Source of the DNA: a virus
Strand: one strand, 5' to 3'
Virus record (IMG/VR): IMGVR_UViG_3300023109_003296
Span: 25,845 to 89,844 of that record
DNA: 64,000 nucleotides
Numbering within the stretch: position 1 is the first letter of the stretch; each line of letters starts with the position of its first letter. Under the pieces are notes generated by a model. It made no database searches, was not told where the DNA came from, and saw nothing but the letters and a program-made list of their open reading frames with translations. A program made the position numbers and the translations under genes. This document shows positions 17,814 to 50,464 of the stretch, piece by piece.

Positions 17814-20708
17814 TTAAGGCATTTCTATTATATCTATATTATTTCCAGAAAAATTCCATGCGCTATTATAATTTCCAGATTGTCCATTCGGTACGTAAAT
17901 CTCCGTCAATGCTGGCATTGAATCAAAAGCAGTAGTGTCATCGAAACCTCCTCCAAATGTAGGAGCAGGTCCCATAAAGAACAGTCCAGACAAACTGTTA
18001 CATCTAGTGAATGGATTGACACCCCATTTAGTGACCGTTGAAGGAATTGTTACCTCTTTGAGGTTTGTGTTTGGATTAGAACTTTCCATTTGTAAGAAAT
18101 ATGAAGGTATATTTTCCAAACCTTCGTTCAAATAAACTCCGCTTATTGTCCTGTTCTTGCTAAATGAAAAACCCCCCATACCTGTTAACGAAGTGGGTGT
18201 ATTTATTTCTCCTATCATGCATGACTGAAAACAATAACCAGGTATATACTCTAATCCATTATTGAAATTCACCACACTTAAGTTTGGCGAACTAATAAAC
18301 GCTCTAGAACCAATCCCTGTTAAAGAAGCTGGCATTGTAACTTCAGTTATATTATTGCTTAAAGCAAAGCAGTTGGCTTCTAATTCCGTTATTGATGAAG
18401 GTAAAGTTATGCTTGTAAGATTATTACCATAAAATGCACTATTTTTAATCCCTGTTATTGTAGATGGCAAATTAATTCCACTAAGTTTTGGACAGTAAGA
18501 AAACATGTTATCTCCAATATATGGTATTCCCTCGCCCAATGTAACACCACTTAAAAGAGAACAAGAAGTAAAAGATCTAGGATAAATATACTGTAAGCTA
18601 CCCCCTAAGTTTACACTTGATAAGTTTGTACCATTAAAAGAACCGTAATAACTTTGATAACTCACATATCCATCTAAACTCTCTATGTTTGGCAAATCAA
18701 CATGACCAATATAAGGGTTTTGATAGAAAGCATGTCCATCTATTGTAGTTATAGTGCTTGGTAGATTAATATCTCCACTTATACCACATTGACGAAAAGC
18801 CTCTCTGCCTATTCTTTTTACTCCTTCTTGGATAAATACTCCAGACAAAGAATTTGAACCTTCAAAACAGTAATCATGAATACCATCAGCACCTGAAATC
18901 GTTCCTGGTATAGTTACTTCTGTAAGAGAATCGCAATTAGCAAAAACGCTGGAGGCTAATTTTTCTAATTGATTTAAATCTAAACCACTTAAAGATGAGC
19001 AATTACTAAACACACTATATTCCATCTCTTTTAAAGAATCTGGTGCATGAAACCACTCAAGACCATTACACGAATTGAATGCTGAGTATCTTATAACCTC
19101 TAAAGAGTCCATTCCTTTTATTTCTTTTAATCCATTGGATGAGCTGCAAAATTGTGGAGGAATTTCCGTTATTAAAGGAGGAATAGTTATCTCTAATAAC
19201 GAATTACAGAATTTGAAAGTGCTACCATCACCTAATGTTGTAAGACTATTAGACAGTCTAACACCAGAAAGAGAACTGCAATTATAAAATTGATTGCTTC
19301 TATTAAAATTATCTATATACTCCAAATCAATATACAACAAATCTGAACACGAAAAAAAAGTGTTTCCTCTAAGTTGAGATTGACCAGAAGACATGCTTAC
19401 CCCACTTATATTTGTATTCTCCCAACAATTTGCACCCATATAAGTTACACTGTCTGGAATATCAATAAAACCACTAATATTGCTATTAATAAAAGCACTG
19501 AAATCAATTGCAGCAAGTGTTGATGGGAATTCAATTGTTTTCAAGCTATAGGTATTTTGGAAACAACTATTTCCAATATATGATAAAGTATTACCTAAAT
19601 AAATACCAGAAAGAGAATCGCAGTTGCTGAAACAGCTTTGTCCCAATGATCCCATATTATCTGGAAGCTCTACGTATTCAAGAGATTCACAATTATAAAA
19701 AGTAGAATCACTTAAAGATAAAACGTTGTTAACTGGATTAAACACAACCTCTCTAAGACCAGTGCAATCTTGGAAACAATTTATACCAATAGTTTCAAGG
19801 CTTGAAGGGAAATACAAACCAGACAAAACATCACAACTAAGAAACGCATTACTTCTAATTTCTTCAAGCCCCTCGTTAAAGGTAACCCCGCTTAAGTCAT
19901 CACAAGCATTAAAAGCATTTTCACCTATCCCAGTAATATTTGAAGGTATTTCGACGCCACTTAAACTAGTACAACCATAAAAACCGTATCTATTAATAAA
20001 TTCTAACCCAACACCGAAATTAACATAAAGAAGATTAGTATTACCATAAAAAGCACTAGCTCCTAAATAAGTTAAACTATCAGGAAGTGTAACCCCAGAT
20101 AAAGAATAACAATAACCAAAACCAGTTATCCCTATATATTCCAATGTATTAGGTAAATTCAATTCCAAAAGAGACTCACAATTTTTGAAAGCTTCATATT
20201 CAATTCTGTTCAATGAACTACCAAGGTTGATCCCCGTAAGAGATATACAATCATTAAATGCTCTCGGTCCCATATCTTCAACAATATCCCCACAATTAAC
20301 ATAATTAACATTTGAGCAAGTTGCAAAACAATTATTACCTATTTCTAAAACTGAATCAGGGATTTGTATTGAGGTTATATTGTCACAATTATAAAAAGTA
20401 GAAGTTTGCAATACAGATACGCCACTGCCTAGAGTTAATACCCCAGGCATTCCCGCACTAAAAAAAGCACTAGTACCAATATTATTAACACTATCGGGTA
20501 TTGTTATAGGGTGTTTAATTGACTCACATCCTTTAAATGCAGATCCTCTAATTTCCTTTAATCCTTCGTTCAAATCTACACTTTTCAACTTTGCGCAATC
20601 TAAAAAAGATTGCGTTCCAATACCAGTAAGTCCTGACGGCCAATAAAAAGTCTCTAAATTTATGCACCCGTTAAATGCATTATTATCTATGTGTGTTATA
20701 GTATTCAT
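17814..20708 (-). CDS. BspA-type (LRR_5) leucine-rich-repeat protein; probably a continuation of the upstream ORF
   Basis: Continuous ~23-aa repeats (IGxxAFxxCxxLxxVxxP) with C-cap LTEIYVP; begins mid-repeat. Confidence 0.88.
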   Translation of the reverse strand: MNTITHIDNNAFNGCINLETFYWPSGLTGIGTQSFLDCAKLKSVDLNEGLKEIRGSAFKGCESIKHPITIPDSVNNIGTSAFFSAGMPGVLTLGSGVSVLQTSTFYNCDNITSIQIPDSVLEIGNNCFATCSNVNYVNCGDIVEDMGPRAFNDCISLTGINLGSSLNRIEYEAFKNCESLLELNLPNTLEYIGITGFGYCYSLSGVTLPDSLTYLGASAFYGNTNLLYVNFGVGLEFINRYGFYGCTSLSGVEIPSNITGIGENAFNACDDLSGVTFNEGLEEIRSNAFLSCDVLSGLYFPSSLETIGINCFQDCTGLREVVFNPVNNVLSLSDSTFYNCESLEYVELPDNMGSLGQSCFSNCDSLSGIYLGNTLSYIGNSCFQNTYSLKTIEFPSTLAAIDFSAFINSNISGFIDIPDSVTYMGANCWENTNISGVSMSSGQSQLRGNTFFSCSDLLYIDLEYIDNFNRSNQFYNCSSLSGVRLSNSLTTLGDGSTFKFCNSLLEITIPPLITEIPPQFCSSSNGLKEIKGMDSLEVIRYSAFNSCNGLEWFHAPDSLKEMEYSVFSNCSSLSGLDLNQLEKLASSVFANCDSLTEVTIPGTISGADGIHDYCFEGSNSLSGVFIQEGVKRIGREAFRQCGISGDINLPSTITTIDGHAFYQNPYIGHVDLPNIESLDGYVSYQSYYGSFNGTNLSSVNLGGSLQYIYPRSFTSCSLLSGVTLGEGIPYIGDNMFSYCPKLSGINLPSTITGIKNSAFYGNNLTSITLPSSITELEANCFALSNNITEVTMPASLTGIGSRAFISSPNLSVVNFNNGLEYIPGYCFQSCMIGEINTPTSLTGMGGFSFSKNRTISGVYLNEGLENIPSYFLQMESSNPNTNLKEVTIPSTVTKWGVNPFTRCNSLSGLFFMGPAPTFGGGFDDTTAFDSMPALTEIYVPNGQSGNYNSAWNFSGNNIDIIEMP

Positions 20709-49339: not shown

Positions 49340-50464
49340 ATGTCAAGAAATAGAGTAATTTATCAATCGGAATCGCTTTACGTTAGTAAAGACGCAGCAT
49401 CCACCTCCTCTGGAGATCATGAGGAGCTTATCAGGGTTCAAAGTGCAAACTATGGATTCAACATTAACAGACAGGACGTAAACCAATACGGAAACCTAGC
49501 TCGTATCGATTCTTTGGTACTTGAAGCACCAACAGTCAACTTTGACTTCTCCTATTACTTAGGTGATGGATTCAATGAAAAAGCATTAGGTTTTGATATT
49601 ACATCAAACGCCCAATTCCCAAGCGGCTTCCTCGAAAGTTCAAGCGGAAGAAACTTCTATATTGTAACTGCTGAAGAAGGTCAAGACTCAGTAAACTTCC
49701 TTAACGGAGATTCTTACAGTCTTATCGGTATCGGAAACGCATTCCTTAGTGACTACTCAGTAGACCTATCTGTTGGAGCTCTTCCTACAGCTACTGTTAC
49801 TTTTGAAGCTGCCAACATCAACTCAACAAACGGCACAATTGAAGGTACTCAACCAAGTAACTTCCACATGAGCGGCGAAAGCCCTGCGGTCGACATTGAG
49901 CTAGGTGTTCCTCTTGGAGAAGAGGTTTCTATTCTTAAGCCAGTAAACACTGGTCAAGATGGTCCTTCAGCTTTACGTCCTGGTGATATTTATATCACAT
50001 TCCCTGGATTTACTGACGATAATTCTGCACTAGCTAAGATTAGCGGAGATGGCAAGTTCCACCTTCAAAGTGCAAACCTTTCTGTGCCTCTTTCCAGATC
50101 ACCAATCGAAAGACTTGGTTCTAAGTTCCCATTTGCTAGGGTTGTAGACTTCCCTGTTAACGCATCTATGTCTGTAAACGCTATTGTGAGCGAGCAAGAA
50201 ACCAGAGACCTTTCAGCGCTTATTTCTGGCTGTACAAGTTCTCAAGGATCTGTCAGAATAACTCTTGAATCATGCGAAGGCGGTGAAGCTATCGTATGGG
50301 ACATTAAAGGAGCAACTCTCGATTCTGAATCTTATTCCTCCAGCATTGGATCAAACAAAACTGTTGATCTCACCTTTGGTGTTCAGCTTGGTGGTATCGA
50401 TGATTTAGAAAACGGCATACTTTGTAGTGGGTCTGGTCAGAACAGACCAATCTTCACTCTGTAG
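49340..50464 (+). CDS. Major tail tube protein, copy B
   Basis: Close paralogue of copy A; MSRNRVIYQSE and LSVPLSRSPIERLGSKFPFARVVDFPVNA are identical. Confidence 0.7.
   Translation: MSRNRVIYQSESLYVSKDAASTSSGDHEELIRVQSANYGFNINRQDVNQYGNLARIDSLVLEAPTVNFDFSYYLGDGFNEKALGFDITSNAQFPSGFLESSSGRNFYIVTAEEGQDSVNFLNGDSYSLIGIGNAFLSDYSVDLSVGALPTATVTFEAANINSTNGTIEGTQPSNFHMSGESPAVDIELGVPLGEEVSILKPVNTGQDGPSALRPGDIYITFPGFTDDNSALAKISGDGKFHLQSANLSVPLSRSPIERLGSKFPFARVVDFPVNASMSVNAIVSEQETRDLSALISGCTSSQGSVRITLESCEGGEAIVWDIKGATLDSESYSSSIGSNKTVDLTFGVQLGGIDDLENGILCSGSGQNRPIFTL

Follow-up and report, generated by a model that had tools for sequence, protein, structure and literature searches.

Paralogous tail-tube proteins fused to BspA-type leucine-rich repeats suggest an adhesive tail tip in an uncultured marine phage

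Five paralogous tail-tube proteins, two of which are extended by very long arrays of BspA-type leucine-rich repeats (LRR), were found to be encoded in a stretch of viral DNA of 64,000 nucleotides. This stretch, called the window in the following, comprises bases 25845-89844 of the 89,844-base IMG/VR record IMGVR_UViG_3300023109_003296, the completeness of which is estimated to be 72%, and the sequencing runs that contain the phage DNA are labelled seawater metagenomes. Sequence comparisons, structure models and the analogy to characterized phages make it fairly probable that the window encodes the tail of a marine siphophage that would be composed of three-fold rings of double tube domains, and that LRR solenoids on the rings of the tail tip would act as adhesins or receptor-binding arms. 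The five proteins are encoded at 48164-49312 (paralogue A), 49340-50464 (paralogue B), 33692-34513 (the small paralogue), 22288-31806 (the giant fusion) and 20705-22291, which together with 17814-20708 represents the split fusion.

An earlier note on this DNA, which was based on the letters alone, had reported that five open reading frames (ORFs) share one set of motifs, and all five were found as described. The shared motif blocks are visible in a five-way alignment, in which the identity to paralogue A is 58% for paralogue B, 42% for 20705-22291, and 26 and 22% for the other two. A search of the record itself with paralogue A yielded matches at four places (E 8e-249, 5e-116 for paralogue B, 1.1e-73, and 8.1e-27). 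The N-terminal part of the giant fusion could be aligned to paralogue A by BLASTP over 350 columns (3e-28), and a hidden Markov model (HMM) of the family matched residues 3-369 of the giant fusion at 7.9e-80 and the protein of 20705-22291 at 8.8e-116. The BLASTP match of the small paralogue was weak (1e-5 over 84 amino acids, aa). In spite of this it was accepted as the fifth paralogue, because a family HMM of 66 members, from which it had been excluded, recognized it in two collinear stretches (full E 1.4e-12), because hhalign yielded a clear match between the tube family and a family of 51 rows built around the small paralogue (97.8%, E 9.6e-13, 176 columns), and because its predicted fold is in agreement.

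The fold of the shared domain was modelled with AlphaFold (AF2). The model of paralogue A, calculated from a 66-row alignment, had a predicted local distance difference test score (pLDDT) of 89.9 and a predicted template modelling score (pTM) of 0.89. With this model, Foldseek retrieved the tube of T5/DT57C, T5 p140, the major tail protein of SH-Ab15497 and the tube of P74-26 with E-values of 2e-11 to 1.2e-8 (2e-11 to 8e-11 for the T5/DT57C tube chains). A comparison with VIA gave a Z-score of 20.2 to the T5 tube protein pb6 (9iny_A; 306 aligned residues, root-mean-square deviation 3.9), which covered residues 7-377 of the 382 residues of the model, and Z-scores of 19.7 to P74-26, 19.1 to SH-Ab15497 and 16.9 to the 293-residue T5 tip chain 9ioz_A. 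The earlier note had named T5 pb6, lambda gpV and SPP1 gp17 as proteins for comparison, and only the first of them turned out to be a strong match. In contrast, the single-domain tubes of SPP1 and lambda, as well as Hcp, had Z-scores of only 6.7-8.1, and each covered one half of the model, i.e., approximately residues 1-216 in the case of SPP1 and lambda gpV, and residues 221-374 in the case of Hcp. Because pb6 and the P74-26 tube match the whole model, while single-domain tubes match only half of it, paralogue A was assigned as a fused double tube domain. The model of the small paralogue had a pLDDT of 77.7, and its fold match extended over residues 5-267, with 245-257 aligned residues and Z-scores of 17.0 to the SH-Ab15497 major tail protein, 16.4 to P74-26, and 16.3 and 15.9 to the T5 p140 chains 9ioz_A and 7qg9_G. 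The tail-tube fold that had been postulated for the shared domain was thus borne out, as both models match T5 pb6-type tubes. A double tail-tube domain is predicted for all five proteins, for paralogue A and the small paralogue from the models, and for the other three from their homology to paralogue A. It had also been considered that the shared domain might be that of a capsid or sheath protein. This was rejected; the top fold matches are all tube proteins, Hcp or tube-like tip chains, and the window contains a separate head block.

A homotrimer of the small paralogue was modelled as well. The ipSAE value was 0.65 (median of three runs), while the best of three controls scored 0.00; the mark applied to this score is reached by 20 of 30 proteins that had been solved as same-chain pairs, and by 1 of 23 that had been solved as single chains. 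The runs agreed in at least 59% of the contacts, the partner pLDDT was at least 70, and the N-domain of one copy contacts the C-domain of the next. The modelled trimer fits a ring, but its good score may reflect the likeness to the solved rings of pb6 and p140.

The tail of T5 (pb6, p140; PDB 9iny, 7qg9, 9ioz) is the closest known system. In the excerpts of the published T5 study that were used here (PMC10038345), pb6 is described as the product of a duplication and fusion of a tube domain that forms trimeric rings with pseudo-six-fold symmetry, its paralogue p140 as a single trimeric ring at the tip between the tube and the distal tail protein Dit, and the tube as continuing through p140, Dit and the hub; the decoration of a tube protein is, according to the same excerpts, usually a small Ig-like domain. 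The tail encoded in the window shares with T5 the double tube domain in one chain and the presence of a diverged, undecorated paralogue in the tip module. Like p140, this small paralogue is encoded directly past the tape measure gene and carries no extra domain. There are also clear differences. Five paralogues are present here compared to two in T5, the plain tube proteins are devoid of the C-terminal Ig-like domain of pb6, and two paralogues bear 1100-2800 aa of LRR. Counterparts of pb9, pb3, pb4 and pb5 were not recognized, and the protein in the Dit position is a doubled gpM instead of a hexameric pb9. The sequence identity to the T5 chains is only 10-14%. Among the tail ORFs that were scanned with Pfam and PHROGs, a p132-like or Ig-like collar protein was not recognized, with no search made specifically for p132. 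The same fused double tube domain is present in the tube of P74-26 (PDB 8ed0) and in the major tail protein of SH-Ab15497 (8xan); judged by their titles, these entries are tube proteins only, and they gave no sign of a set of paralogues or of LRR fusions.

The extensions of the two fusions consist of BspA-type repeats, i.e., the Pfam family LRR_5 (PF13306, curated cut-off 27.7 bits). The matches are far above this cut-off in residues 450-526 of 20705-22291 (1.2e-13, 51.5 bits), in 17814-20708 (2.3e-181, 593.6 bits) and in the giant fusion (1.1e-293, 956.6 bits, 24 stretches), as well as in the neighbouring minor tail protein at 31808-33655 (1.3e-54, 183.9 bits). The C-terminal LRR arrays that the earlier note had noticed on two tube paralogues and on 31808-33655 are therefore real, and its total of roughly 4000 aa agrees with a count from the Pfam matches (about 2770 + 964 + 80 + 270, i.e., roughly 4080 aa). 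Such repeats are rare in the phage collection, in which only 19 of 50,697 records match the 964-aa LRR protein of 17814-20708 at E-values up to 1e-10, all of them uncultured and without functional annotation. The same repeats are found in BspA-type surface proteins, yet in the four ORFs described here (1e-13 to 1e-293) they occur on putative ring domains of a phage tail and not on bacterial or protist surface anchors. The idea that the arrays are recent expansions at the DNA level was dropped, because Tandem Repeats Finder detected a single 21-nt array as the only one in 17814-33655.

The 964-aa LRR ORF had been regarded as a separate gene, and this view had to be revised. In a relative of 1516 aa (P0149) the first third matches all 528 aa of 20705-22291 at 52% identity, and the 964-aa protein aligns to P0149 from residue 537 on. 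A second relative, the IMG/VR locus L005, has a single ORF of 1569 aa (P0276), and its subsequent genes are sized like those that come next in the window. When P0276 was used in a tblastn search, residues 3-515 aligned to 22279-20711 in frame -3, and residues 506-1466 aligned to 20723-17922 in frame -2. Because the two pieces are collinear with single ORFs of 1516 and 1569 aa and are separated by a frame change of one base, the 964-aa ORF was assigned as the continuation of the second tube-LRR fusion. With 20705-22291 as a single-sequence query no relative was found in the viral and metagenome contig sets, while the family alignment as query did find relatives.

The split itself raises the question of whether the apparatus is partly decaying or misassembled, in which case the frame change would stem from misassembly or from a mutation that disables the gene, and the paralogues would represent redundancy and not an ordered stack. 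One ORF in the relatives versus two in the window would be in line with this explanation, and so would the origin of the record, an incomplete metagenome assembly. However, both pieces are long open frames, with an ATG located exactly at the stop codon. In addition, a sequencing run of a different study (X2) has identical letters without any indel across 20580-20879. This coverage has a depth of 2-2.6 and consists of two abutting pieces of 151 letters each (20580-20730 and 20729-20879), neither of which has 31 letters on both sides of position 20708; the runs X3, X4 and X5 are devoid of junction coverage. Because X2 agrees without an indel, albeit at low depth and in abutting pieces, an assembly error is less likely. 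Furthermore, the other four paralogues, including the giant fusion, are intact and conserved. Decay or misassembly of the apparatus is thus regarded as very improbable.

The relatives of the tube proteins were analyzed to reveal how general the fusions are. The tube family comprised more than 3340 matches among 8000 scored candidates, with 1122 representatives at 50% identity (E up to 0.001), and the database sources listed for the members are metagenomic, several of them marine. A search with the family alignment led to 79 IMG/VR loci, 19 of which contain a tandem pair of plain tube genes like the window. In 52 loci one plain tube gene was seen in the flanks that had been fetched, and in the remaining 8 a tube ORF extends for at least 80 aa beyond the domain. 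Among the 150 best representatives, 27 have an extension of at least 80 aa beyond the tube domain. Eight long representatives were inspected; LRR_5 was found in five of them (together with He_PIG and FG-GAP in P0127), LRR_4 in one, Bact_surface_Ig-like in one, and the last one had no match. Seven further ORFs yielded LRR_5 in two cases, Laminin_G_3 (concanavalin A-like) together with FG-GAP in one, a C-type lectin domain in one, and nothing recognizable in three. The giant fusion has 15 further orthologue clusters with lengths of 1978-3944 aa and anchor identities of 38-76%, and LRR_5 is present in all of them. In receptor-binding and adhesion proteins of phages, a constant structural anchor is combined with exchangeable modules, and this is the pattern seen here with modules of the lectin-like, Ig-like or LRR type. 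The comparison of appendages in related contigs that the earlier note had suggested thus revealed the same anchor with LRR, lectin-like or Ig-like modules. Because the relatives retain the tube anchor and exchange the appendage (LRR, concanavalin A-like lectin, C-type lectin, Ig-like), a role in adhesion or receptor binding is suggested.

Two side observations on the tube family should be mentioned. In seven members (P0156, P0157, P0160, P0173, P0181, P0187, and P0215) the match to paralogue A from about residue 28 on begins 200-400 residues into the protein, while in an HMM scan the tube domain of the same seven starts within 80 residues of the N terminus, which points to a large insertion behind the first strand and not to an N-terminal fusion. 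Two tube homologues, P0015 and P0087, are also filed under metagenome-assembled genomes (MAGs) of a member of the Flavobacteriaceae (83% identity) and of Heimdallarchaeota (56%). Most probably these are phage contigs that have been binned with cells, and the Flavobacteriaceae MAG represents a weak host lead.

The protein encoded at 31808-33655 had been described as a minor tail protein. Its gpM-like nature and its LRR array were verified, but it contains two gpM-like repeats instead of one. It matched PF05939 (Phage_min_tail) at 3.7e-13 and 50.2 bits (cut-off 39) in two stretches, and lambda gpM could be aligned to it twice by BLASTP, to residues 60-133 (3e-5) and to residues 212-302 (0.002). 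The doubling was deduced from these two stretches and from the two alignments of lambda gpM. When one half of the gpM-like region was compared with the other by BLASTP, no significant similarity resulted (E 0.17), and a phmmer search of the PDB with the N-terminal 345 aa yielded nothing usable (E 0.82). In lambda the gpM gene follows the tape measure gene, and here the gpM-like gene is likewise located shortly after it; unlike in lambda, the gpM-like domain is present twice per chain. Such a doubling would be suitable for a tail with three-fold symmetry.

The order of the genes in the tip module, which are all encoded on one strand, is tape measure, small paralogue, double gpM-like protein, giant fusion and split fusion. 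Because the genes of the decorated paralogues lie after the tape measure gene, these proteins are proposed to form rings of the tail tip like T5 p140, and not to be scattered along the tube. The earlier proposal of tube rings that display LRR is thus retained with respect to the tube fold, the covalent LRR fusion and its conservation in the lineage, and is changed with respect to the position, which gene order places at the tip instead of along the tube. The following architecture is envisaged. The plain paralogues A and B would build the long tube around the tape measure protein, and the fused double-domain subunits would form three-fold, pseudo-six-fold rings. The small paralogue would be located next toward the tip, in the role of p140, and would be followed by the doubled gpM/Dit-like protein. 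The giant fusion and then the split fusion would finish the stack of rings in the order of their genes. The ring-forming N-terminal parts of the last three proteins would serve as anchors, from which LRR solenoids of about 270, 2800 and 1100 aa per chain would project outward. These arms might fix the virion to the host surface, or to surrounding polymers, ahead of DNA ejection.

The position of the giant and the split fusion after the Dit-position gene is also compatible with a function as baseplate hub. In this case their tube-like domains, as analogues of a Tal with extension, would replace the gp27-like Tal/BHP, which also consists of trimeric fused double tube domains, and the fact that Pfam and PHROGs did not reveal another hub candidate in the tail block would fit. 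However, for about 350 columns both proteins follow the plain tube protein collinearly, with no large inserts, and they would hence lack counterparts of the inserted domains that close the tube of T5; in addition, they have a clear sequence kinship to the phage's own tube genes (the E-values of 1.1e-73 and 8.1e-27 given above). A hub function of the two fusions is therefore judged to be quite improbable.

It is less far-fetched, although still unlikely, that the LRR arrays tether the virion to material other than the host, such as marine particles or algal and mucus polymers, or to a capsule or slime of the host, and thereby raise the rate of encounter, with the true receptor-binding protein residing elsewhere or being unrecognized. 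Ig-like decorations have reportedly been proposed to raise encounter rates by adherence to mucus. The alternative appendages of the relatives are general glycan- or surface-binding modules (Laminin_G_3, C-type lectin, Bact_surface_Ig-like, FG-GAP), about 2800 aa per chain are more than a single receptor contact requires, and the seawater label of the sequencing runs would be in accordance with such a role. Siphophages place receptor-binding functions after the tape measure and Dit genes. The fusions are encoded at this position, past the tape measure and the Dit-like gene, which argues against mere tethering and corresponds to the order in T5 as far as it is given in the excerpts of PMC10038345. 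Moreover, neither the tail block nor the rest of the window yielded another candidate gene for a fibre or a receptor-binding protein, and the flanks encode replication, sugar-nucleotide and head functions.

Several points weigh against the proposed tail of tube rings with LRR arms at the tip. For paralogues A and B and the small paralogue no Pfam family was found at E-values up to 0.01, and PF18906 (Phage_tube_2) was reached by 1 of the 66 family members with an E-value of 0.088. In PHROGs, paralogue A had no match, and only paralogue B was weakly matched (phrog_290, E 0.0079). When the alignments of 5 and 66 rows were used as profiles against PDB chains, the matches remained at chance level (best E 0.52 and 0.19, respectively), and tblastn searches of the phage collection with paralogue A and with the tube domain of 20705-22291 yielded no match. 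A feature search of the ESM Atlas retrieved clusters with 12-15% of their members in PF18906 Phage_tube_2 or PF23779 Baseplate_Tube_p140, which was the sole listing of this kind. As there is no Pfam match and the PDB profile searches stayed at chance level, the kinship to pb6 is derived from the predicted structure, and trimer modelling covered one of the five paralogues, the small one. The presence of two plain tube genes where one would suffice is an unexplained oddity. The long LRR array of the split fusion may lack an anchor, may depend on frameshifting, or may have been lost, and the ligand of BspA-type repeats is not readable from their sequence. Lastly, a gp27-like hub/Tal, gpJ, gpL or a classic fibre was not recognized by Pfam and PHROGs among the ORFs of the tail block, and consequently the assignment of part of the tip may be wrong.

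A more far-reaching version of the proposed architecture can be envisaged, in which the whole tail is three-fold and the set of hub, Tal and fibres is replaced by rings of tube paralogues, each carrying its own exchangeable adhesin, the largest with about 3900 aa. This version is possible, but rather doubtful. If it were true, the receptor-binding proteins would be part of the tube, the host range would be altered by the swapping of modules on a constant ring anchor, and the closure and triggering of the tube would be achieved by something other than a gp27-like hub.

Fused double tube domains (T5, P74-26) and a tube paralogue in the tip (T5 p140) have been known before. New are the number of paralogues, the doubled gpM, the occurrence of BspA-type repeats in a phage tail, and the putative role of tube-domain rings in anchoring repeat arrays that are thousands of residues long. 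A literature search, in which titles and the openings of abstracts were screened, yielded no description of a fusion between BspA-type repeats and a tail-tube or other tail protein of a phage. So-called evolved Dit proteins of phages of lactic acid bacteria carry carbohydrate-binding modules; both these and the proteins described here carry a binding module, which is of the BspA-type LRR here and not a carbohydrate-binding module. If the tail with LRR arms on tip rings is correct, the single tube paralogue in the tip of T5 would generalize, and ring-forming tube domains would anchor very large, exchangeable binding modules. The host-recognition genes of uncultured marine siphophages could then be found by the simple rule of a tube domain followed by an extension, and BspA-type repeats would have a viral role. 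It would also raise the structural question of how a tail tip without a recognizable hub is closed and triggered.

Table 1. Positions of the tail-tube paralogues, the further tail proteins and the gene blocks in the window.
Feature	Position	Strand	Details
Tube paralogue A (P0001), undecorated tandem double tube domain, candidate major tail tube protein	48164..49312	+	382 aa
Tube paralogue B (P0002), directly downstream of A	49340..50464	+	374 aa; family HMM E 6.7e-141
Small paralogue (P0004), minimal undecorated double tube-domain protein, first gene past tape measure, T5 p140-like	33692..34513	-	273 aa
Giant fusion (P0005), tube paralogue with BspA-type LRR	22288..31806	-	3172 aa; tube domain first ~370 aa, LRR ~2800 aa
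Split fusion, 5' piece (P0003), tube paralogue with linker and first LRR units	20705..22291	-	528 aa; tube domain residues 4-374
Split fusion, 3' piece as judged by relatives (P0365), pure LRR_5 ORF	17814..20708	-	964 aa
Frame change between the pieces, stop TGA overlaps ATG of next ORF (ATGA)	20705..20723	-	sequence, tblastn frames
Double gpM-like protein (P0364), two tandem lambda gpM-like (Dit-position) repeats with LRR_5	31808..33655	-	615 aa; LRR_5 ~270 aa
Tape measure protein	34513-44040	-	3175 aa; PF10145 PhageMin_Tail, E 4.7e-28, residues 128-320
Tail gene block	17814-46162	-	
Inverted block between tail and head blocks	46208-53677	+	
Head block	53737-62982	-	
Large terminase	61123-62982		phrog_2, E 1.4e-22
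Putative portal	58106-60070		weak match
GPO-like scaffold/protease	56593-58122		weak match

The positions of all features are compiled in Table 1. The GC content of the window is about 32-42%, and tRNA genes were not found in it. The region left of the tail block contains Hsp20-side genes and genes for a ribonucleotide reductase, sugar-nucleotide enzymes, a RecA-like protein and a DnaB-like helicase. The tape measure protein contains glycine-rich segments and repeated charged segments. The length of a tail is given by about 1.5 Å per residue of the tape measure, and this rule predicts a tail of about 470 nm. Transcription of the tube genes and of three unnamed genes upstream of them diverges from that of the tape measure operon, with 46162-46208 in between, and the block is inverted relative to the head and tail modules. 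The same separation of a tube locus from a tip locus was observed in a related contig (IMGVR_UViG_3300021378_002906, loci L006 and L010). The genes at 44088-48116, in the neighbourhood of the tube pair and ahead of the tape measure, were not named by PHROGs and Pfam, so that chaperones, terminator and connectors are without assignment.

The large terminase matched 67 records of the phage collection, and the identities were 24.7-27.4% among the 12 that were listed. None of the matches reached 60% identity or 80% query cover, and a cultured relative was not found in this collection. Four tandem genes for kinase-like proteins of the APH family (PF01636) adjoin the tube pair (50538-53677, plus strand; E 2e-10, 1e-4, 6.3e-8, and 1.6e-12). 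Two tandem genes for aspartyl/asparaginyl beta-hydroxylases (PF05118, E 5.2e-29 and 2.7e-35) are located between the terminase and the putative portal gene (60126-61120, minus strand), and they may be involved in the modification of virion proteins. A cluster at 4034-10159 on the minus strand encodes a GDP-mannose 4,6-dehydratase (7.9e-100), an epimerase/reductase (1.6e-62), a GT11 fucosyltransferase-like protein (4.6e-30) and a GT2 protein (3.1e-8), and it could mediate the glycosylation of the virion or of the host surface.

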